This document shows positions 1,221 to 57,895 of a stretch of 64,000 nt of DNA, in pieces; position 1 is the first letter of the stretch; each line of letters starts with the position of its first letter. Below the pieces are notes generated by a model that saw nothing but the letters and a program-made list of their open reading frames with translations, searched no databases and was not told the DNA's origin. The stretch is from an uncultured bacterium. Lineage in GTDB: Bacteria; Patescibacteriota; Minisyncoccia; Phycocordibacterales; GWA1-40-21. The translations under genes were made by a program, and so were the position numbers. Location of the stretch: assembly GCA_903823865.1 (NCBI GenBank), contig CAIJUJ010000021.1:6732-70731 (forward strand). Reading direction: 5' to 3'.

Positions 1221-1371
1221 TTTTCACCCCCCTATTTTTTAATTACTCATGACAATGCGTAGCATTACGTCTGATTTAAGATTACAATAAATTTAAAATA
1301 GTGCAATATAGAATCAAAGCAGTTTGTTTGACTTTCTTATCACAAAAAATAATGCGAAAGCGTTATTTTTG

Positions 1372-1563
1372 TTGTGCCAAGGGCCGGAATCTCTCCTTCA
1401 CCTTTCATTTCATCGCCACTCAATTCGGGCTAGGCACCAGTTCATTCACCCCGCAAGCTTGCGGGGTATCATTCCGCTGTTCTCGTCCGGACAGAAGCAA
1501 AGCAGTTTGCTTCCTCCCTCAAGCCAATTTTAAAAACACCAAATGTTGGTGTTTTTAAAATTG
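1372..1563 (-). mobile_element. tRNA-3'-linked miniature element, family I (Phe copy): terminator + GAAGCAAA-GCAG-TTTGCTTC hairpin + inverted T-arm copy + 17-nt direct duplicate of the tRNA-Phe 3' end
   Basis: 'ttgtgccaagggccgga' at 1372-1388 duplicates 1561-1577; hairpin 1494-1513; terminator hairpin 1532-1556; 'gttctcgtccggac' is an inverted copy of the T-arm. Confidence 0.5.
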
Positions 1564-1636
1564 TGCCAAGGGCCGGACTCGAACCGGCGACCACATCCTC
1601 TTCAGGGACATGCTCTACCAACTGAGCTACCTTGGC
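1564..1636 (-). tRNA. tRNA-Phe (GAA)
   Basis: Manual cloverleaf: acceptor GCCAAGG/CCTTGGC, D GCTC-AGTTGGTA-GAGC, anticodon loop CUGAAGA, T GCCGG-TTCGAGT-CCGGC. Confidence 0.9.
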
Positions 1637-2460: not shown

Positions 2461-2603
2461 TGTGCGAGTGGCGAGAATTGGCTATTACTTAGCCAGGTGC
2501 TTTTCCGCCTCACTTCGCTCGTATATAAAAGCCTTTCGATTCTCGCCCACAAGCAAAGCAGTTTGCTTGTTCACTCGAATTTAAAAACTAATCGTTTTTA
2601 AAT
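2461..2603 (-). mobile_element. tRNA-3'-linked miniature element, family I (Gly copy)
   Basis: 'tgtgcgagtggcgagaat' at 2461-2478 duplicates the tRNA 3' end at 2604-2621; hairpin CAAGCAAA-GCAG-TTTGCTTG at 2550-2569; 'ttcgattctcgccca' is an inverted T-arm copy; body homologous to the Met copy at 57243. Confidence 0.5.
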
Positions 2604-2605
2604 TG

Positions 2606-2676
2606 TGCGAGTGGCGAGAATCGAACTCGCGCCCGATGCTTGGGAAGCACCAGTTCTACCACTAAACTACACTCGC
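2606..2676 (-). tRNA. tRNA-Gly (CCC)
   Basis: Manual fold: acceptor GCGAGTG/CACTCGC, anticodon loop UUCCCAA, T GCGAG-TTCGATT-CTCGC. Confidence 0.85.
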
Positions 2677-6222: not shown

Positions 6223-6762
6223 TTAAACCTTTTTTATATTGGAAAGAGCACTCTTGCTTTTGGAAATGTCTTCAGATATTTCATTTGTTCTTTTTGCGGC
6301 CGCTTCTAGAGTCTTAGACAACATGTCTAAGAAAAAGAAAAAACGAGGGTCGGCTGGATTCTCAGCGAATTCTTTAATATAAGCTTTCGTGAATTCTTCG
6401 CCGAGCTCACGGTACAAAATGTCTATAGCTTTTCCACAGCATTCTTCAATTACTTGCAGGCCTAGAACTCTGTTCACTATGTATGATTGGTCTCTTCTTT
6501 CAGGGTGATTTGTTCCACAAAACTCACATGTGACAGGACCGTATGTTCCATGAGCATCGTTATTCCACCCAAATCCGCCTTCAGGTATTTCACTTTCCCC
6601 AAAAGGTTTAGAAACGATCGGTGCTTTTATATGCATATTGGACCTCCGTCCATCAGAATTTTGAGCTTTAACTTCTAATGAAAGTAAAGCATAGTTAATT
6701 TGGTAAATCAAGAAATTGACGGACATAAAATTCGGGTCCATCACATAAGTGCATCCTAGCAC
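6223..6762 (-). CDS. hypothetical protein (true start possibly Met at ~6636)
   Basis: ORF with 'CEFCGTNHPERRD' Cys/His cluster; the N-terminal 40 aa overlap the tRNA-Tyr terminator region. Confidence 0.45.
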   Translation of the reverse strand: MLGCTYVMDPNFMSVNFLIYQINYALLSLEVKAQNSDGRRSNMHIKAPIVSKPFGESEIPEGGFGWNNDAHGTYGPVTCEFCGTNHPERRDQSYIVNRVLGLQVIEECCGKAIDILYRELGEEFTKAYIKEFAENPADPRFFFFLDMLSKTLEAAAKRTNEISEDISKSKSALSNIKKV

Positions 6763-6773
6763 TTACTCTGGAC

Positions 6774-6812
6774 GCACAAAAATAAAAACGCCATAGAAGC
6801 GTTTTATTTTTG
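6774..6812 (-). terminator. terminator hairpin directly following tRNA-Tyr
   Basis: gcacaaaaataaaaacgc-catagaa-gcgttttatttttgtgc; the stem includes the tRNA 3' nucleotides. Confidence 0.6.
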
Positions 6813-14993: not shown

Positions 14994-15065
14994 GGCCTGG
15001 TTGCTAAGTGGTAAAGCATTCCTCTGCAAAAGGAATACGCGGGAGTTCGATTCTCCCCCAGGCCT
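14994..15065 (+). tRNA. tRNA-Cys (GCA)
   Basis: Acceptor GGCCTGG/CCAGGCC, anticodon loop CUGCAAA, U73. Confidence 0.9.
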
Positions 15066-15312
15066 CAAGAAATATCATGAAATGATATTTCGGGGAGAAT
15101 CGAAAGACGGAGTGAGCTTGGGTTGGGACCCAAGCGCAAGACCTGTGATAGTTTTATATGAGTGAAAGCGAAATATAAAACAGAACAGGTATACAGATTC
15201 TGTAAGAATCACGAAGTCCGTTTTCAGCAGAAAACGGGTGCGAGTCGGGGTCGAGAAAATTTGTGAGCGACGGCGAACAAATTATTCGTGACCGATTCAC
15301 AGTATTATTAAT
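15066..15312 (+). repeat. tRNA-3'-linked element, family II (Cys copy)
   Basis: Terminator 15069-15091; 'ggggagaatcgaa' is an inverted copy of the tRNA-Cys T-arm; conserved 'gaaagacggag..gagc', hairpin cgtttt-CAGCAG-aaaacg (15219-15236), 'tcgtgaccgattc'. Confidence 0.5.
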
Positions 15313-15396
15313 GCCTGGGTGGCGAAATTGGTAGACGCTAGAGACTTAAAATCTCTCGGTGGCAACATCATGTGGGTTCGATTCCCACCCCAGGCA
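15313..15396 (+). tRNA. tRNA-Leu (TAA)
   Basis: Acceptor GCCTGGG/CCCAGGC, anticodon loop CUUAAAA, long variable arm, A73. Confidence 0.9.
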
Positions 15397-15758
15397 CAGA
15401 TTAAAAGTGACCCATTCCTTGGGTCACTTTTAATTTGTCAGGTGGGAATCGAAAGACGGAGCGCGACGGCGCGAGTCAGGGTCGCGAGATTTTTCAGCAG
15501 AAAAATACTTGTGACCGATTCCCTAATCTTGCTTACGTGTGGGAATCGAAGAACCTTGAGTATATTTTTGAGCATGTACCCATGTGAAAAAATACGAAAG
15601 GTGTACCGTCCATGTAATGGAAGATAAGCGAAGCGGTCCCACCGTTTCTTTAATTTTATTCGGGGTGGGACCCAAATAAAATTTTGTCGAAAAATACTTG
15701 TGACCGATTCCCCAGTTTTAATTGATTTTCCTTCATTTTTCTGATATTTTATTGACAT
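15397..15758 (+). repeat. tRNA-3'-linked element, family II (Leu-TAA copy, two tandem units)
   Basis: Terminator 15402-15433; 'ggtgggaatcgaaagacggagcgcgac'; hairpin attttt-CAGCAG-aaaaat 15489-15506; 'gtgaccgattccc' twice; 'gaaaggtgtac', 'catgtaatgg', 'ggggtgggaccc' modules. Confidence 0.5.
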
Positions 15759-15831
15759 GCGTCCATAGCTCAGCTGGTAGAGCAAATCCCTCTTAAGGAT
15801 AAGGTCGTTGGTTCGACTCCAACTGGACGCA
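15759..15831 (+). tRNA. tRNA-Lys (CTT)
   Basis: Acceptor GCGTCCA/TGGACGC, anticodon loop CUCUUAA, T GTTGG-TTCGACT-CCAAC, A73. Confidence 0.8.
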
Positions 15832-15835
15832 CAAT

Positions 15836-15866
15836 TAAAAAACACCACTTATGTGGTATTTTTTAA
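15836..15866. terminator. bidirectional terminator
   Basis: aaaaaacaccac-ttat-gtggtattttttaa. Confidence 0.75.
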
Positions 15867-16225
15867 TCTTTAAAAGGTTTTTTAATAAAATTAGTTAAAC
15901 TATTTATTTTATCTTTCAAATCCTGTCTAAATTTTTCTTTTCTTTTTTCTTTCAAAAATTTTTCATTTAGTCTTTGAACTGCTTCTTTTGCCAATTTTGG
16001 TTTATTTTCATTAATATATTTAAATAAATCTTGCTTATCTATAAAATTATCATAGTCAATACTGTTCTTTATTTCTTCAGCAACTTCTAATTCTCTTTTG
16101 TAACTTAACAATCTTTGGTCAGGGGTCATAACCTCATCAGCAATGTTTTCTAATTCTTTTATAGAAATAGAATCATTGGAATCTTGATTTTTATTATATA
16201 AATTTGGTTGATTTTCTGAAAACAT
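15863..16225 (-). CDS. hypothetical acidic/coiled-coil protein
   Basis: 120-aa ORF with a terminator at its 3' end; no family recognised. Confidence 0.45.
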   Translation of the reverse strand: MFSENQPNLYNKNQDSNDSISIKELENIADEVMTPDQRLLSYKRELEVAEEIKNSIDYDNFIDKQDLFKYINENKPKLAKEAVQRLNEKFLKEKRKEKFRQDLKDKINSLTNFIKKPFKD

Positions 16226-16335
16226 ATGATTAATTAAATATTAAAATCCATTATATATGATAATTCTTTTTGTTTAAAAAAACAACCAAATTATTGATTT
16301 TAATGTTATTTCAGTATAGAATGCAATCCATAAAT

Positions 16336-16416
16336 GCACGGGTGGTGAAATGGCAGACACGCTAGCCTTAGGAGCTAGTGCCGTAAGGCATGGAGGTTCA
16401 AGTCCTCTCCCGTGCA
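16336..16416 (+). tRNA. tRNA-Leu (TAG)
   Basis: Acceptor GCACGGG/CCCGTGC, anticodon stem CTAGC/GCTAG with loop CUUAGGA, long variable arm, A73. Confidence 0.85.
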
Positions 16417-16690
16417 CAGTAAGAAAACGCCGATAGGGCGTTTTTCTGTGCGCAGGAGAGGACTTGAAAGACGGACTGAGCAAAGGCGAAGGAGCCGGGG
16501 TCGCGCAAATTTTCAGCAGAAAATTATGCGTGACCAAGTCCTCTTGTGAAATAGAAAAAATACGAAGACTATACTGACCATGTAATGACCAAGATTCCTC
16601 TCCCGTGTCGTGTATTTAATTTGGGGTGGGACCAAAATTAAATACTCGTGACCACATTCTATTTTATTTATGTTTTGACATTTAACCAAT
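16417..16690 (+). repeat. tRNA-3'-linked element, family II (Leu-TAG copy)
   Basis: Terminator 16423-16446; 'aggagaggacttgaa' inverted T-arm copy; 'gaaagacggactgagc'; hairpin aatttt-CAGCAG-aaaatt 16508-16525; direct T-arm/3'-end copies 'aagtcctct' and 'cctctcccgtg'. Confidence 0.5.
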
Positions 16691-37910: not shown

Positions 37911-37999
37911 TTTTTGTGCGAAGCAAACTATGTTAGACTAATATAAAATATATTATGTCAAAAATAATAAAAAACCCATTAAAGAATTTTCTAAGAATT

Positions 38000-38111
38000 G
38001 GTCTTTGCGAGTAAAATGTGAGGAAGCAAAAGTCTTTGCTTCCGCAAGACCTTGAATGTTTTGTAATCAAAATGTGAAAGGTGTACAGTTCCTGTAAGGA
38101 ACAATCCAGGT
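38000..38111. repeat. intergenic repeat modules related to the tRNA-linked elements
   Basis: ggtctttgcgag...GAAGCAAA-AGTC-TTTGCTTC...cgcaagacc nested hairpin (38000-38051); 'gtgaaaggtgtacagttcctgtaaggaacaatccaggtt' shares 'gaaaggtgtac' with family II. Confidence 0.4.
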
Positions 38112-38127
38112 TAAATAAATAAACATT

Positions 38128-39240
38128 ATGTTAAAATTTAAAAAAAGTGAAAATTCACATAGGGCTAGTAAAAAAAATTGGCTTGTAATTAGTATTTCAT
38201 GTTTGCTGATTTTAATACTTTTCATTTTTATTTTTGGTAGAAGTACTTCTTATAAAGTTGATGCTGATGGGAATGTCATTAAAAAAATTTCCCAGCTTGA
38301 TGTAAAAGAATACGACAGAAGATTAAATATGCTTGCTCATATTGCTACAAGCACTGCAACGAGCACTCTTGCTTCAACGACGTCTGCAACTTCCACTGCA
38401 TCAACTACAAAAAAAAGTCTTTGGCCAGTAAAAACTGTTTACCCAAATGCTGGGGCAATATTACCCTTCAATCGCATAGTGGCTTATTATGGAAATCTTT
38501 CATCAAAAAGCATGGGGGTTTTGGGGCAATATCCAGAAGAAGAAATGTTAACAAGATTACAAGCAGATACGCAAAAATGGACTGACGCGGATCCAGAAAC
38601 ACCAGCAATTCCAGCACTTCACTACATCGCTGTAACAGCTCAAGGTCTTCCTGGCGTAGATAAAAAATATAGATTACGCATGCCCGATTCTGAAATAGAT
38701 AAAGTGGTAACGATGGCTAAAAAAATCAATGCTATCGTAATACTTGATATACAGGTAGGTTTAAGCACGATACAAGATGAACTTCCATTACTTGATAAAT
38801 ATATTAAAATGCCACAAGTTCATATTTCTATTGACCCTGAGTTTTCTATGAAAAATGGGCAGCGCCCTGGTTTTGAATATGTCGGAACATATGATGCGAC
38901 AGATATAAATTATATTATTGATTATTTGGCAAAAATAGTTGATGAAAATAATCTTCCGCCAAAAGTTTTAGTAATTCACCGCTACAGACAAGAAATGGTT
39001 ACAAATTATAAATTAATTAAAACTGTACCCGAAGTGCAAATAATTATGGATATGGATGGATGGGGTCCAAAAGATCACAAACTTGCAAGCTACACAAAAT
39101 ATATTTACAAAGAACCAGTTCAGTTTACAGGTTTTAAACTTTTCTATAAAAATGATTTGTGGAAACCAAGCACTGGTATGATGACGCCAGAAGAAGTATT
39201 AAAATTAACTCCATCGCCTATTTATATCCAGTATCAATAA
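38128..39240 (+). CDS. membrane-anchored extracytoplasmic protein, possibly TIM-barrel hydrolase-like
   Basis: TM anchor, Thr/Ser-rich linker, 270-aa globular domain; no confident family. Confidence 0.45.
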   Translation: MLKFKKSENSHRASKKNWLVISISCLLILILFIFIFGRSTSYKVDADGNVIKKISQLDVKEYDRRLNMLAHIATSTATSTLASTTSATSTASTTKKSLWPVKTVYPNAGAILPFNRIVAYYGNLSSKSMGVLGQYPEEEMLTRLQADTQKWTDADPETPAIPALHYIAVTAQGLPGVDKKYRLRMPDSEIDKVVTMAKKINAIVILDIQVGLSTIQDELPLLDKYIKMPQVHISIDPEFSMKNGQRPGFEYVGTYDATDINYIIDYLAKIVDENNLPPKVLVIHRYRQEMVTNYKLIKTVPEVQIIMDMDGWGPKDHKLASYTKYIYKEPVQFTGFKLFYKNDLWKPSTGMMTPEEVLKLTPSPIYIQYQ

Positions 39241-56466: not shown

Positions 56467-56934
56467 TTATTTGAAATATTTGATTAAAAAATCTTTTGTT
56501 TGTTCTGGCCAAATAGTTAGGTTTTTTATTTCTTTTACATCAACCCACATTGGATTATAAATATTTTTTTCTGATGCCCTTCCCACCTCAACGCTATCAT
56601 TTGCCAATTTTGGTACACCGGAAATGTATTTACATAAACAAATATGATGTGTTCTTCCATTTATGTCTATCAAAGAAAAGAGTTTTTTATCAAAGTCGGC
56701 CTTAATTGATGTTTCTTCTAATAACTCACGGGTTGTAGCATAAGCTAATGTCTCACCTTCTTCGACATGACCTCCTGGTAAAACATAATACTCATTATCG
56801 TTTTTGTGACGAAAAATCATTAAAACTTTATTATCCTTGTAAACAAATGCTGTGGCCCTATCGCCTATCATGAAAAAAATTATACCATAAATCATACGAA
56901 CCGGCTGGCCGGAGTTTCTAAGATTTCGAGTCAT
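56467..56934 (-). CDS. NUDIX hydrolase (start more likely the Met at ~56892)
   Basis: Nudix box 'LPGGHVEEGETLAYATTRELLEETS'; the annotated N-terminus runs into the family I repeat. Confidence 0.75.
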   Translation of the reverse strand: MTRNLRNSGQPVRMIYGIIFFMIGDRATAFVYKDNKVLMIFRHKNDNEYYVLPGGHVEEGETLAYATTRELLEETSIKADFDKKLFSLIDINGRTHHICLCKYISGVPKLANDSVEVGRASEKNIYNPMWVDVKEIKNLTIWPEQTKDFLIKYFK

Positions 56935-57117
56935 GCTGGCCGGAGTTTCTCCCTCGACTAAAGCCTCGTCTTCACTCGGCTTTGTCTGGGCACCAGCTCA
57001 TTCACCTCGCAAGCTTGCGAGGTATCATTCCGCTGTTCGAATCCGGACGCAAGCAAAGCAGTTTGCTTGCTCCAGCCGCGCAAATAAAAATAACCACTTT
57101 CGTGGTATTTTTATTTG
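56902..57117 (-). mobile_element. tRNA-3'-linked miniature element, family I (Asp copy), with an extra partial tandem duplication of its distal end
   Basis: 'gctggccgga' at 56904-56913 and 56935-56944 duplicates the tRNA 3' end at 57122-57131; hairpin GCAAGCAAA-GCAG-TTTGCTTGC at 57049-57070; 'gttcgaatccggac' inverted T-arm copy; body 'tcattcaccYcgcaagcttgcgRggtatcattccgctgttc' shared with the Phe copy. Confidence 0.5.
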
Positions 57118-57191
57118 CGCGGCTGGCCGGATTCGAACCGGTGACCTCTCCCGTGACAGGGGAGCGCTCTAACCAACTGAGCTACAACCGC
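57118..57191 (-). tRNA. tRNA-Asp (GTC)
   Basis: Acceptor GCGGUUG/CAGCCGC, anticodon loop CUGUCAC, G73. Confidence 0.85.
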
Positions 57192-57242
57192 ATTTATTGA
57201 CAAACAAAACAATAACAGAAAAATGTTGTTTCTACAATATTT

Positions 57243-57395
57243 TTCTTGTGTCGACGGGTGGAATCTGCTACTACATAGCCAGGTATTTTTCCACCTCGCT
57301 TCGCTCATACGGAAAAATCTTTCAATTCCGCCACGGAGTGAAGCAGTTCACTCCTCTCGCACTCGAATAAAAATGAATATTCATTTTTATTCTTG
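57243..57395 (-). mobile_element. tRNA-3'-linked miniature element, family I (Met copy)
   Basis: 23-nt 'ttcttgtgtcgacgggtggaatc' at 57243-57265 duplicates 57390-57412; hairpin GAGTGAA-GCAG-TTCACTC at 57336-57353 with compensatory stem changes; body homologous to the Gly copy. Confidence 0.55.
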
Positions 57396-57469
57396 TGTCG
57401 ACGGGTGGAATCGAACCACCGACCTTAGCTTTATGAGTGCTATGCTCTAGCCAACTGAGCTACGTCGAC
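57396..57469 (-). tRNA. tRNA-Met (CAT), elongator-type (or tRNA-Ile2/LAU)
   Basis: Acceptor GUCGACG/CGUCGAC, anticodon loop CUCAUAA, G1-C72 paired, A73. Confidence 0.75.
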
Positions 57470-57520: not shown

Positions 57521-57895
57521 CTACTTGTTTAGATAGTGTTTTAATTGTTTATTTAAATATTTTCTTCCAGAACCACCTTTTAGAAATTTCTCTCTACCAA
57601 CCGCATCATCTATATTCAAATATGCTTCATAATAAACAAGTTTCCAGTTGGTTTTATCTTTTGTAGTTCTACACCCCTTTCCTCTTAGATGGTCAGTGAT
57701 TCTTTGTTTTAGATTTGATGAATATCCAATATAAAAACTCTTATCTTCATTTTGTAAAACATATGTATAATACATTTGGTCATTATCACTTTTATACAAA
57801 AATAAATCAAATTTTTGGCCTGCCACGAGACAAAAACTACCTTGGCCGCGCAAAATAAATTGATTACAATTTATCGCCCGGCTCACGAAAAACAA
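57521..57895 (-). CDS. GIY-YIG nuclease-family protein (UPF0213/YhbQ-like; start probably the Met at ~57772)
   Basis: 'YYTYVLQNEDKSFYIGYSSNLKQRITDH...W.LVYYE' GIY-YIG core. Confidence 0.6.
   Translation of the reverse strand: MFFVSRAINCNQFILRGQGSFCLVAGQKFDLFLYKSDNDQMYYTYVLQNEDKSFYIGYSSNLKQRITDHLRGKGCRTTKDKTNWKLVYYEAYLNIDDAVGREKFLKGGSGRKYLNKQLKHYLNK

Follow-up and report, generated by a model that had tools for sequence, protein, structure and literature searches.

The inserts that follow the genes for tRNA-Asp and tRNA-Met in the 64-kb window (that is, in the whole stretch of DNA analysed here) raise the question of what such sequences are, how they came to lie behind their host genes, and why parts of them match the tail of a tRNA. 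Both inserts are copies of a widespread family of small, hairpin-rich, non-coding elements that occupy tRNA 3' ends in the ultra-small Patescibacteria and that apparently have not been described so far. The elements are approximately 100-350 nucleotides in length, contain no gene, and, read in the sense of the tRNA, display a common order of parts: the tRNA, a hairpin of terminator type, a stretch antisense to the acceptor 3' strand, a conserved hairpin (HP), a second stretch antisense to the T-stem and T-loop, a body that forms a three-way junction of type A, B or C (with one or more body modules per insert), and finally a direct repeat of the tRNA tail. The antisense of the T-stem 3' strand and T-loop, just after HP, was absent from the first-pass annotation of this DNA, while that annotation's element lengths (183 bp at tRNA-Asp and 153 bp at tRNA-Met), 23-nucleotide Met repeat, hairpins and coordinates were all confirmed. 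The two tRNAs scored 65.8-68.8 bits against Rfam, and the Asp locus is composed as follows.

57117/8-57191, minus strand: tRNA-Asp(GTC) (ARAGORN; Rfam tRNA, 65.8 bits)
57117-57137, minus strand: tail of tRNA-Asp, T54 to C74 (from the sequence)
57120-57131, minus strand: stretch of tRNA-Asp that is repeated distally, TCCGGCCAGCCG (from the sequence)
57082-57116, minus strand: AT-rich terminator-like hairpin, AAATAAAAATACCAC-GAAA-GTGGTTATTTTTATTT, part of the Asp element (fold and consensus scan)
57072-57081, minus strand: rcAcc, GCGCGGCTGG, perfect antisense of the tRNA-Asp acceptor 3' strand, discriminator and C74
57049-57070, minus strand: HP of the Asp element, GCAAGCAAA-CUGC-UUUGCUUGC (covariation)
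57036-57047, minus strand: rcT, TCCGGATTCGAA, perfect 12-nt antisense of the T-stem 3' strand and T-loop (tRNA positions 65-54)
56994-57035, minus strand: type C arm I, with helix CAGC/GCUG, internal loop GGAAUGAUA / UGAAUGA and hairpin P1 CCUCGCAAGCUUGCGAGG
56946-56993, minus strand: type C arm II, GGUGCCCAG, hairpin P2, then CGAGGGAGAAA
56935-56945, minus strand: proximal direct repeat of the tRNA-Asp tail, CTCCGGCCAGC, which closes the current Asp element
56902-56934, minus strand: stump of an older type C element, ATGACTCGAAATCTTAGAAA, with its own tail repeat CTCCGGCCAGCCG (56902-56914)

The type C arms were defined by a consensus fold of 7 type C copies, and the fold of the whole Asp element is more stable than that of shuffled sequences (z = -4.0). 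The acceptor 3' strand, CCAGCCGCGC, has an inverted copy, GCGCGGCTGG, as the first-pass annotation had described, and the two flank the terminator-type stem at 57082-57116; within that stem, positions 57093-57106 scored as terminator-like on both strands, in each case as a match to the consensus (a G+C-containing stem, then a T run). Several of these parts vary among relatives. A different hairpin takes the place of the terminator-like one in relative L210, which is 92% identical and in which P1 is swapped for UUUUUUCAGCAGAAAAAA and the proximal repeat site carries the full CTCCGGCCAGCCGCGC; the terminator-like hairpin is also missing from the empty site of L207; and the rcAcc of L212 displays two C>T changes that retain pairing as G.U.

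The distal end of the Asp element had been interpreted as a partial tandem re-duplication, marked by a repeat of 10 nucleotides that might vary between samples. The repeat is present and measures 11 nucleotides (CTCCGGCCAGC, at 56935-56945 and 56904-56914 on the minus strand), with the distal copy extending to 13 (56902-56914). The stump that contains the distal copy has a homologue in relative L209, is identical in 5 contigs of one strain from different samples (L202-L206), and is missing from L210 and L212. On that comparison the distal repeat is the 3' end and repeat of an older element, and neither a recent nor a variable duplication.

The Met locus differs in its body type, and its parts are given next.

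57395/6-57469, minus strand: tRNA-Met(CAT), elongator type (ARAGORN, Rfam)
57390-57412, minus strand: first copy of the 23-nt repeat, which begins at G57 of the T-loop and ends 5 nt beyond C74
57266-57389, minus strand: the insert, 124 nt (exact empty site in L209)
57368-57389, minus strand: terminator-like hairpin
57355-57365, minus strand: non-cognate antisense piece, CGAGTGCGAGA
57335-57354, minus strand: HP of the Met element, GGAGUGAA-CUGC-UUCACUCC
57321-57334, minus strand: rcT of the Met element, GTGGCGGAATTGAA
57281-57320, minus strand: type A arm I (type A fold and covariation)
57267-57280, minus strand: type A arm II, GGCUAUGUAGUAGC (type A fold and covariation)
57243-57265, minus strand: repeat copy 2, 23 nt, then the original terminator-like hairpin at 57217-57246

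Both copies of the Met repeat read GATTCCACCCGTCGACACAAGAA on the tRNA strand, and the piece at 57355-57365 is antisense to a tRNA-Gly-type tail rather than to that of tRNA-Met. The corresponding rcT is a perfect GGTGGAATCGAA in both L210 and L212, so that the copy in the window carries two later substitutions; the idea that the Met copy was unadapted to its host was partly withdrawn for that reason, since its T-arm antisense was perfect in those relatives. Outside rcT the Met element has 6 recent substitutions, every one of them in a loop; the 62 nucleotides that form stems have none. The fold of the Met element again exceeds that of shuffled sequences in stability (z = -2.95).

Two further copies of the family in the same window share their bodies with these two.

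1372-1562, minus strand: type C copy behind tRNA-Phe, with a terminator-like hairpin (1526-1562), rcAcc-like GGCTTGAGGG (1516-1525), HP (1494-1513) and rcT GTCCGGACGAGAA (1480-1492)
1372-1388 and 1561-1577, minus strand: 17-nt repeat of the Phe copy
2461-2604, minus strand: type A copy behind tRNA-Gly(CCC), with a hairpin (2578-2604), rcAcc CGAGTG (2572-2577), HP (2549-2570) and rcT (2535-2547)
2461-2478 and 2604-2621, minus strand: 18-nt repeat of the Gly copy

The division of these four copies into two sub-families was borne out: the string GAGCGAAGYGAGGYGGAAAA is confined to the copies at Gly and Met (0.01 chance matches expected), and AACAGCGGAATGATACC only in those of Phe and Asp (0.10 expected). 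The separate 'Family I' into which all four had been placed did not survive, as its hairpin is found, in other genomes, mixed with the bodies of the window's other tRNA-linked family (the one at Cys and the two Leu genes). Altogether at least 8 of the 15 tRNAs of the window carry a relative. Beyond the window, the same anatomy was recovered via HP in 63 loci, mostly from Patescibacteria, with many hits in Saccharibacteria; the HP sequence is found at 119 or more loci in other genomes, and the same units are present in several classes of Patescibacteria and in metagenome-assembled genomes of Elusimicrobia, Firmicutes and Campylobacterales, in a wider sample that was collected with one exact hairpin sequence and is biased towards that flavour. 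An 11-nucleotide antisense of the T-arm (with no more than one mismatch) lies within 200 nucleotides downstream of 58 of the 185 tRNAs in the hairpin-selected loci, where roughly 0.3 would be expected by chance (an approximation from 4^11 and the positions scanned). Of 54 tRNAs that lie near gatA in diverse relatives and form an unbiased sample, only 2 passed the strict test, which indicates that the elements are sporadic and no fixed part of tRNA genes. Tandem arrays are found at L016, L072 and L106; newer copies adjoin the tRNA, and older stumps lie distally. Mirror-image elements also occur, at the 5' end of tRNA-Ser genes.

Comparison of orthologous loci revealed exact empty sites at both genes. 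At tRNA-Met, L209 corresponds to the window minus exactly the 124 nucleotides and one 23-nt repeat, with flanks that are 97% identical, and the site is empty in L122 as well; at tRNA-Asp, the site is empty in L207 and is occupied in L209 by a type A element placed before the same old stump. Because of these exact empty sites, and of the different body type found at Asp, the elements are gained, lost and swapped; the empty sites themselves would fit excision or a pre-insertion state alike. At 92-95% identity, L210 and L212 display swaps of modules, in which bodies, inner hairpins and terminators are exchanged between copies and host-matched parts stay put, and in L212 the body is swapped exactly at the TTCGAA junction. 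Much of the apparent customisation of each copy may thus be simply resident at its locus.

The best explanation for these elements, to which we would give about an even chance, is that they are non-autonomous insertion cassettes that target the T-loop and 3' end of tRNA genes, fold on one strand, and are moved in trans. Insertion would correspond to recombination in the T-loop or tail, as it does for integrases with target sites in the T-loops of tRNA genes, and the machinery would be encoded elsewhere. The relevant form would be a folded single strand, of DNA or RNA, that mimics the tail of the tRNA, and the matching to the host would arise partly from the insertion step and partly from later selection for pairing. 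The exact empty sites, the module swaps, the matching to host tRNAs, and folds that covary and are more stable on the sense strand all count in its favor, and the lack of a recombinase in the window ORFs and the cargo scanned counts in favor of non-autonomy. The mirror-image elements at tRNA-Ser are unlike the products of T-loop integrases, and count against this explanation.

A distinct set of observations concerns the folded form of the elements. The compensatory changes that the first-pass annotation noted in the HP stem hold beyond the four copies of the window: across 22 distinct hairpins, 9 of the 9 pairs change on both sides, so that the stem differences covary and are not random, and 98% of cells are paired (a figure that is inflated by the choice of hairpins with at least 7 of 9 Watson-Crick pairs, as the both-sided changes are not). 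The covariation score of 0.861 compares with 0.221 in shuffles, none of 500 of which reached it, and slid controls are 29-43% paired. The loop, described as constant, is so only inside the window; across the family CUGC is found in most copies, and AGUA, CUAC, UAAAC, GGG, AGGG and GCAG are found as well. These patterns support the view that HP has been selected for structure and not for sequence. The helices of type A and type C bodies also covary strongly, and the antisense pieces can pair with the distal copy of the tail, which makes of the whole insert a self-closed structure. A DNA-uptake sequence or operator was ruled out, as the HP stem varies with compensation and HP is not scattered through the window.

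Such behavior raises the possibility that the elements act as RNA. A functional 3'-trailer RNA might be transcribed with, or just after, the tRNA and adopt a closed multi-helix fold, in which the antisense pieces would pair either with the 3' half of the tRNA itself or with the decoy copy of its tail; it could act in cis or in trans on the maturation, stability or fragments of the tRNA, or be excised by RNase P or an RNase Z-type enzyme as a stable small RNA, and its movement from one tRNA to another would follow, as a by-product, from recombination at the T-loop sequence that tRNAs have in common. All helices covary, as this proposal would have it; G.U wobble exceeds A.C pairs on the sense strand (19 versus 8); the tRNA-sense strand provides the more stable fold in 38 of 40 elements (p = 3e-6); recent substitutions spare the stems; and the antisense pieces have undergone three changes in L212, each of them C>U with a G.U pair kept. 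Unpaired motifs are strongly conserved (the loop UGUAA, the junction GUGUACUG, and GAGCGAAGCGA and GAGNCGGGGUCGCGAG), as is a G.U pair in type B helices, which together give the look of a working RNA and count against the insertion of cassettes; the loop and junction motifs are moreover conserved across phyla. The arrangement of tRNA-Gly(CCC), a type A element and a glutaredoxin gene is syntenic in three distant genomes (the window, L026 and L083), which suggests long retention and likewise counts against cassettes. Against a trailer RNA, orthologous tRNAs of close relatives lack the element, as do all but 2 of the 54 tRNAs that were sampled without bias; tRNA and element are usually separated by a terminator-like hairpin; stumps and tandem copies pile up; cargo of kilobase size may part the tRNA from the element; and the near-pure Watson-Crick composition of the HP stems (247 such pairs, 1 G.U and 2 A.C) is not what structural selection alone usually produces in an RNA helix. 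A trailer RNA is, in our judgment, possible, if doubtful. A functional RNA on the opposite strand was ruled out by the better folding of the sense strand.

The correspondence between elements and their hosts was quantified in the hairpin-defined sample of 63 elements. A perfect antisense of the element's own acceptor 3' strand (at least 6 nucleotides) was found in 22 of them, against 2.2 when tails were swapped among loci, and an antisense of its own T-loop and T-stem (at least 8 nucleotides) in 32, against 6.0 in the same control. Matching of the copies to their host tRNAs thus stands far above the swapped-tail control, and the claim that each copy is customised goes too far in view of the Gly-type piece at 57355-57365 of the Met copy. 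The acceptor antisense follows the living tRNA tail over the decayed repeat in 15 cases versus 2, and the T-arm antisense tracks rare variants of the T-loop (TCCGA with TCGGA in L083; TGCAA with TTGCA in L002); both of these patterns are also in favor of a trailer RNA. Of 58 tail repeats, 16 are perfect and 40 at least 70% identical; the repeat spans 12-47 nucleotides, most often starts at T-loop position 56-57, and ends 0-6 nucleotides past C74. The repeat boundaries vary at both ends, and therefore correspond neither to a fixed target-site duplication nor to a single crossover point; this again speaks against insertion cassettes, as does the Met copy, in which perfect repeats accompany non-cognate antisense, so that matching is not simply made at insertion. 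A T-loop intron, with the distal repeat as the true tail, was ruled out, since the distal copy decays and the proximal copy is intact.

The same repeats and antisense pieces might instead be by-products of repair or replication, for which no dedicated enzyme would be needed: the terminator palindrome would be the site of a break or stall, from which the 3' end would fold back and copy the tail in reverse, giving the antisense pieces; at TTCGAA, the palindromic core of the T-loop, it would then switch template to another element, copy the body of that element, and switch back into the tail, giving the direct repeat. The order of tail, antisense and tail is the topology of an inverted triplication, and HP-less copies with one contiguous antisense of the whole tail (at tRNA-Leu(TAG) of the window and at the Met gene of L146) agree with that route. 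Further points in its favor are the variable length of the repeats, which can take in the whole terminator (47 nucleotides in L076 and 46 in L087), the frequent extension of the palindrome through the discriminator and trailer, and the body swap exactly at TTCGAA in L212. The route leaves unexplained the precise placement of HP at the junction of acceptor and T-stem, as well as the conservation and covariation of bodies across phyla and the purifying selection that acts on stems; the Met copy, with its fresh repeat, lacks a cognate acceptor antisense; and donor elements must already exist. We regard it as very unlikely.

Searches for the enzyme and for known relatives gave largely negative results. 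No recombinase, transposase or reverse transcriptase of Pfam was detected in the 40 window ORFs scanned, and neither an autonomous partner nor, among the assembled contigs, a circular form of the elements was found; the missing recombinase, partner and circle count against the cassettes. The active targeting or copying mechanism for which the first-pass annotation argued is plausible as a proposal, with the reservations that no enzyme was found and that body modules swap around resident parts. At gathering score, Rfam returned tRNAs only from the whole window and 10 loci, and scans of both element regions at E<=10 returned weak, scattered matches, all far below gathering scores; known RNA families, including ribozymes, introns, tmRNA and omega/HEARO, were ruled out on the lack of an Rfam match. 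A primer-binding site for reverse transcription was rejected, as a complement to CCA is lacking and the phylum is reported to have no group II introns; the antisense piece runs into the genomic trailer (..GCAC|AA..) and not into CCA, and lacks TGG at its start. A paper on tRNA introns in Patescibacteria deals with group I introns of the anticodon loop, and a literature search that included the hairpin sequence as a query found no account of elements such as these. A link to a neighbouring GIY-YIG gene was rejected as well: homologues lie near elements in 1 hairpin-selected locus only, and the presence or absence of the gene is independent of the elements.

Direct repeats from the T-loop to the 3' end mark integration into tRNA genes at attachment sites of the T-loop type. 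Such repeats, the classic signature of the process (the general point is made in 10.1101/2022.07.05.498093), might suggest that the elements are scars of integrase islands or prophages, in each case an arm left over beside attR after T-loop integration and gene loss. In L049 and L112, co-oriented ORFs totalling 2.1-2.6 kb do lie between tRNA and element, and gene content just past the Asp repeat varies among close relatives. No recombinase domain was found in that cargo, however, and no integrase among the window ORFs scanned; HP has a single match in 2.9 million viral contigs, and blastn of both elements against phage and plasmid collections returned none, on which grounds a phage or plasmid origin was rejected. 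Dozens of independent copies with one modular, covarying architecture of 100-350 nucleotides are unlike random remnants of deletion, and an internal antisense of the target is absent from known attP arms. This origin appears to be a long shot.

A more elaborate form of the proposal that the elements are inserted as cassettes may be offered, though as it stands we consider it improbable. The antisense pieces and the distal copy of the tail would together constitute a single-strand-folded replica of the end of the tRNA gene, and serve as an attachment site that is defined by structure and can be re-programmed; a single trans-acting recombination machinery that recognises the universal T-loop (or, for the 5' mirrors, the D-loop) would insert empty or gene-carrying cassettes at any tRNA gene, in an integron-like system with no known integrase in Patescibacteria and some other phyla. 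More than half of the tRNA genes of this window carry such an insert. If the elements are mobile, some of the smallest genomes among bacteria contain in them a major component that has gone unannotated, and tRNA genes would serve as landing pads in a new way, for very small non-coding units that each bring along a folded copy of the target. That reading raises the questions of which enzyme reads the T-loop in trans, and of whether the choice of target can be reprogrammed via approximately 20 nucleotides. If they are instead trailer RNAs, they add a number of new RNA classes (types A, B, C and HP) that covary well and are tied to tRNA biology, in organisms with pared-down RNA processing. Either reading bears on the annotation of tRNA fragments, the detection of islands by tRNA repeats, and the prediction of terminators in these genomes.

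Among known systems, the islands and prophages whose tyrosine integrases act on the T-loop of tRNA genes similarly leave the target tRNA intact, place a repeat that runs from the T-loop to the 3' end and a few bases past it at the far border, and form tandem arrays through repeated use of one tRNA. They differ in extending over kilobases, whereas the present elements span 100-350 nucleotides with no gene and no integrase found in cis, carry an internal target antisense that is split by a hairpin, possess a conserved covarying body, and have no phage or plasmid relatives. MITEs and the REP, REPIN, Correia, RPE and PATE elements are likewise short, non-coding, hairpin-rich, multi-copy and intergenic, with polymorphism of presence and absence. 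Unlike the constant ends of MITEs, the inverted ends here consist of tail sequence from the host tRNA itself and change from each tRNA to the next; the flanking repeat is 12-49 nucleotides and variable at both ends, rather than a short fixed duplication; and the site is almost always a tRNA flank, with no parent IS found. The t-elements of plant mitochondria, mascRNA and 3'ETS-leuZ are structured RNAs encoded beside or behind a tRNA-type structure, as is predicted here, and the closing helix of the present elements similarly imitates the stack of acceptor and T-stem and ends in the acceptor 3' strand and discriminator. Here, however, the T-loop is paired with antisense and not preserved, there is no signal of the Rfam tRNA clan, and neither ARAGORN nor Rfam made a tRNA-like call on the elements; unlike a tRNA-like structure, the discriminator and C74 are often paired (as in Asp and L035), and the helix often includes bases of the trailer.

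The bridge and seek RNAs of IS110 and IS1111 also correspond to a structured, non-coding element of about 150-200 nucleotides with segments complementary to the insertion target. The present elements lack an adjacent gene for a DEDD/serine recombinase, form a closed three-way junction in place of a double internal-loop layout, and bear long flanking repeats; their complementarity is to a copy carried in cis, and the recent Met insert has a partly non-cognate 'guide'. Integron cassettes and their attC sites differ in that the R''/R' boxes (RYYYAAC / GTTRRRY) are missing here, where elements end ...GGATTCGAA and CGAATCC... and GTTCGAA misfits GTTRRRY; in that the anchor is a tRNA gene and the bodies bear conserved sequence motifs; and in that cargo is found on one side of the folded element in L112 and L049 and on the other in L210. 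No IntI was found among the 40 window ORFs scanned, and no attI was seen in the window. The likeness is one of architecture only: an imperfect palindrome that is defined by structure and variable in sequence, and that folds on one strand; complementary ends, one of which repeats the core of the insertion site; and units that are empty or carry a promoterless ORF, the newest of them beside the fixed site. The enzyme of integrons acts in trans, as is proposed for the tRNA inserts, and recombination of these inserts as single strands would be a conjecture.

The window is AT-rich (G+C 32.6%) and contains 15 tRNA genes, among which tRNA-Asp (57117-57191) and tRNA-Met (57395-57469) both lie on the minus strand, so that sequence downstream of them has lower coordinates. 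Each is followed by a small, hairpin-rich insert, the parts of which are listed below for tRNA-Asp, together with further copies in the window.

Parts of the Asp element (read on the tRNA strand) and additional copies
57117-57137, minus: tRNA-Asp tail, ending ...TTCGAATCCGGCCAGCCGCGC
57082-57116, minus: AT-rich hairpin with a terminator-like score on both strands
57072-57081, minus: perfect antisense of the acceptor 3' strand, GCGCGGCTGG, including discriminator and C74
57049-57070, minus: conserved hairpin (HP), GCAAGCAAA-CUGC-UUUGCUUGC
57036-57047, minus: perfect antisense of the T-stem 3' strand and T-loop (positions 65-54), TCCGGATTCGAA
56946-57035, minus: body, ~90 nt
56935-56945, minus: tail fragment, first copy, CTCCGGCCAGC
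56902-56914, minus: tail fragment, second copy, 13 nt
14994-16620, plus: multi-module arrays after tRNA-Cys, Leu(TAA) and Leu(TAG), starting with T-arm antisense and with other body types
about 6731-6811, minus: decayed copy at tRNA-Tyr

The same order of parts is found at the Met locus, where 124 nt lie between perfect 23-nt repeats (57390-57412 and 57243-57265), and the Phe (1372-1562) and Gly (2461-2604) copies share this anatomy. The first-pass annotation described these four copies accurately in its statements of sequence, apart from the Asp repeat, which measures 11-13 nt rather than 10, and it overlooked the T-arm antisense; the two sub-family signatures that it proposed each occur in their own pair of copies only. 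Elements are also present at other tRNAs, such that at least 8 of the 15 bear a copy. Modules of the Cys and Leu arrays, which occupy the entire interval to the following tRNA, begin with antisense of the host T-stem and T-loop (GGGGAGAATCGAA, GTGGGAATCGAA, GAGAGGACTTGAA) followed by AGACGGAG, and end with GTGACC plus a T-loop/T-stem copy, after which tandem type A modules appear. The Tyr copy retains a terminator-like hairpin, an imperfect acceptor antisense (GTGCGTCCAGA), a hairpin (GUAAGUGC-UAGGAU-GCACUUAU) and an imperfect T-arm antisense, and shows no clear distal repeat.

Two further sequences in the window stand apart from these copies. An intergenic type A copy without any adjoining tRNA (37990-38110, plus strand, before an ORF at 38128) consists of a hairpin (GGAAGCAAA-AGUC-UUUGCUUCC) with flanks GGTCTTTGC and GCAAGACC, then GGTGTACAGTTCCTGTAAGGAAC; and a lone degenerate hairpin, GTCAAACAAA-CTGC-TTTGATTC (1311-1332, minus strand), situated beyond the Phe distal repeat and original terminator (1342-1372), is probably what is left of an earlier element.

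The compensatory changes noted at first pass in HP were upheld across 22 distinct sequences, in which 9/9 pairs are altered on both sides; the covariation score is 0.861, versus 0.221 when shuffled (0/500 shuffles, in controls that ignore phylogeny and on alignments built, as for the bodies, from already recognised elements), and pairing collapses in slid registers. In the same sequences 98% of cells are paired, a figure inflated by the choice of hairpins with at least 7/9 pairs, which raises the percentage paired and leaves the both-sided changes unaffected. The stems are nearly all Watson-Crick (247 pairs, with 1 G.U and 2 A.C). The bodies are three-way junctions: in type A (21 sequences) the T-arm antisense and tail copy form a closing helix from which two arms extend, the second with a UGUAA-type loop, and 16/16 pairs covary, the observed value being matched by 0/500 shuffles on all five measures; in type C (7 sequences) 24/34 pairs covary. 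The Asp element has a folding z of -4.0, and in its predicted minimum-energy fold the distal tail copy is paired with both antisense pieces, acceptor and T-arm, and HP branches off between these. The tRNA-sense strand is computed to fold more stably in 38/40 elements (p = 3e-6), and type A helices contain 19 wobble versus 8 A.C pairs, and the sense strand, as RNA or single-stranded DNA, is therefore the one that folds. The motif GAGCGAAGCGA recurs in inner body loops and tRNA-element spacers at many loci (57296-57306 and 2510-2520 in the window), and contains GCGAAGC, known as a DNA mini-hairpin of unusual stability.

A scan for the 18-nt hairpin core over one genome per species identified at least 119 loci, mainly in Patescibacteria of many classes, with additional examples in Elusimicrobia, Firmicutes, a gammaproteobacterial MAG and Campylobacterales; many of these are MAG contigs that binning errors could assign to wrong phyla, an outcome that the number of loci argues against for Elusimicrobia (4) and Campylobacterales (12). 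Among the matches listed, 63/124 hairpin instances have a same-strand tRNA no more than 200 nt upstream and show the anatomy seen in the window, and their hosts span 19/20 amino-acid specificities. Of 54 gatA-adjacent tRNAs from diverse relatives, an unbiased sample, only 2 passed the strict antisense test, and the elements are therefore sporadic; frequencies outside that sample are biased, since the wide sample was found with one exact hairpin.

Where elements occur, many are matched to their hosts. An 11-nt antisense of a tRNA's own T-stem/T-loop lies within 200 nt of 58 of the 185 tRNAs in the listed hairpin loci, where by our estimate ~0.3 would be expected by chance. In the 63 elements defined by hairpin, a selection independent of complementarity, perfect antisense of the host's own acceptor strand (at least 6 nt) is present in 22, versus 2.2 with tails swapped among loci, and T-arm antisense (at least 8 nt) in 32, versus 6.0. 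Most elements end in a direct copy of the tail (in 16/58 without mismatch over 17-20 nt), which starts mostly at T-loop position 56-57 and stops 0-6 nt beyond C74; it sometimes includes the entire terminator hairpin and thereby reaches 46-47 nt. The acceptor antisense may be non-cognate, as in the Met copy, and tRNA-Phe and tRNA-Asp, which share 16/17 T-arm bases, also share the type C element, which suggests that the T arm is the recognised part. Opposite a host T-loop TTCGAGT (TTCGAAT in L016), the antisense repeatedly reads ..GACGAGAA or ..GATGAGAA rather than the perfect complement (window 1480-1492; L005, L091, L105 and L016 in other genomes), giving a tandem G.A/A.G mismatch between Watson-Crick pairs; this deviation is systematic, not random decay.

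Hairpins and bodies combine freely: the hairpin designated 'Family I' at first pass precedes, depending on the genome, bodies of type A (as in the window's Gly and Met copies), type B (as at Cys and Leu) or type C (as at Phe and Asp), and some copies lack HP and carry a single contiguous antisense tail instead. Such conserved modules are unexplained if the elements are products of fold-back and template-switch repair, an origin that would account for the tail/antisense/tail order and the variable repeats, and that we consider improbable.

Comparison with relatives revealed that elements are gained, lost and exchanged. Contigs whose proteins are identical represent one strain and do not vary; the Asp distal repeat, for which the first pass suggested a test of variability, is likewise the same in the different samples. 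In the relative L209, tRNA-Met is empty: an identical tail leads directly into the sequence that follows the window's second repeat (flanks 97% identical), and adding 124 nt and one 23-nt repeat to this empty site gives the window locus. In L122 tRNA-Met is likewise empty and the Asp element has a different hairpin and body; in L207, tRNA-Met bears an older homologous element with Met-matching antisense pieces and a decayed distal repeat, and tRNA-Asp, which is empty, runs directly into the NUDIX promoter region. At tRNA-Asp, L209 differs in carrying a type A element with another hairpin, followed by a stump homologous to window 56902-56934. What was initially taken for re-duplication of the Asp repeat therefore represents an older type C element, of which the 3' end is left; newer elements have entered between it and the tRNA. 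The existence of stumps, the sporadic distribution and the intervening terminator-like hairpin all count against a functional trailer RNA, a reading that conserved unpaired motifs, wobble pairs in the helices and an acceptor antisense that tracks the living tail (15 vs 2) would favour, and that we regard as unlikely, if less so than a repair origin.

Among close relatives (L210 and L212, 92-95% identity), the Asp element of L210 is still of type C, its inner hairpin P1 and terminator hairpin are different, and it has a full repeat without the stump; in L212 the terminator, antisense pieces and HP are retained, with three C>T changes that leave G.U pairing intact, and the body is of type A. The Met element is found in both and in the window. 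Its T-arm antisense is perfect in the two relatives and has since acquired two substitutions in the window; the remaining six substitutions all fall in loops, with 0 in 62 stem nucleotides (our count). The genes beyond the Asp repeat differ among all three, and the tail copy therefore marks a hot spot of gene turnover: NUDIX in the window (56467-56900), an unrelated 185-aa ORF in L210 (6380-7180) and none in L212 (4560-4650). The window strain has a small GIY-YIG gene (57521-57775, minus strand) between initiator and elongator tRNA-Met (loci cited: L202, L210, L212, L207 and L209). The five more distant relatives all lack it, and their two tRNAs are ~90-150 nt apart; the gene is an independent gene-sized indel on a tRNA flank, and a tie to the elements was rejected.

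Related forms occur in other genomes. In loci L049 (90-2432, minus strand) and L112 (reverse strand, tRNA-Trp to hairpin), 2.1-2.6 kb of co-oriented hypothetical ORFs, with no recombinase domain, separate the tRNA from its element, which is otherwise complete and runs from terminator through antisense, hairpin, antisense and body to tail repeat; in L049 the downstream flank is repeated internally. Mirror-image elements 5' of tRNA-Ser genes (L078, 2475-2745; L081, 2107-2212; also L082, L094 and L043) consist of a direct copy of the first 15-20 nt of the tRNA, a like hairpin and a body; the two loci that were read completely, L078 and L081, continue with a 5'-end antisense copy and, after a short spacer, the tRNA. 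One tRNA of L078 has elements on both its 5' and 3' sides, with near-identical hairpins that differ by one compensated pair. Campylobacterales elements (L006, L011, L015, L018, L023, L030, L042, L050, L064, L102-L104) share an identical 18-nt hairpin core and complementary flanks (...GAGAAGCG..HP..AGCUUCG...), are conserved across loci and lie mostly away from tRNAs; four scanned loci (L006, L023, L042, L050) had no Rfam match, and in L030 one such element lies between two 35-bp tRNA-Lys tail copies with its hairpin in opposite orientation. Short tandem units upstream of some tRNAs (L100, about 610-687, two units of 38 nt; L047, L099, L029) comprise the first 12 nt of the tRNA, then GTYTTGGT.., a mutated D-arm; lacking the hairpin, they are possibly a separate phenomenon.

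The window elements have no coding capacity and no Rfam match, and a scan of 40 window ORFs found no integrase, transposase or reverse transcriptase. Phage or plasmid sequence was rejected after searches of viral, phage and plasmid collections, as were a primer-binding site (the antisense continues into the genomic trailer instead of CCA) and a T-loop intron (decay affects the distal copy of the tail and spares the proximal one). The reading that we prefer, at roughly even confidence, is that the elements are non-autonomous insertion cassettes: tRNA genes would be their target, at the T-loop/3' end, their sense strand would fold into a closed structure, and something encoded elsewhere would move them. 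A recombination step would insert the cassette at that site; the folded sense strand, with a closing helix that mimics the tRNA tail, may have a role; and the antisense pieces would come to match the new host tRNA. No description of such elements was found in the literature, with the hairpin sequence itself included as a query. That they are scars of classical islands seems to us about as doubtful as a repair origin; partial tRNA copies are a well-known trace of integration into tRNA genes (10.1101/2022.07.05.498093).
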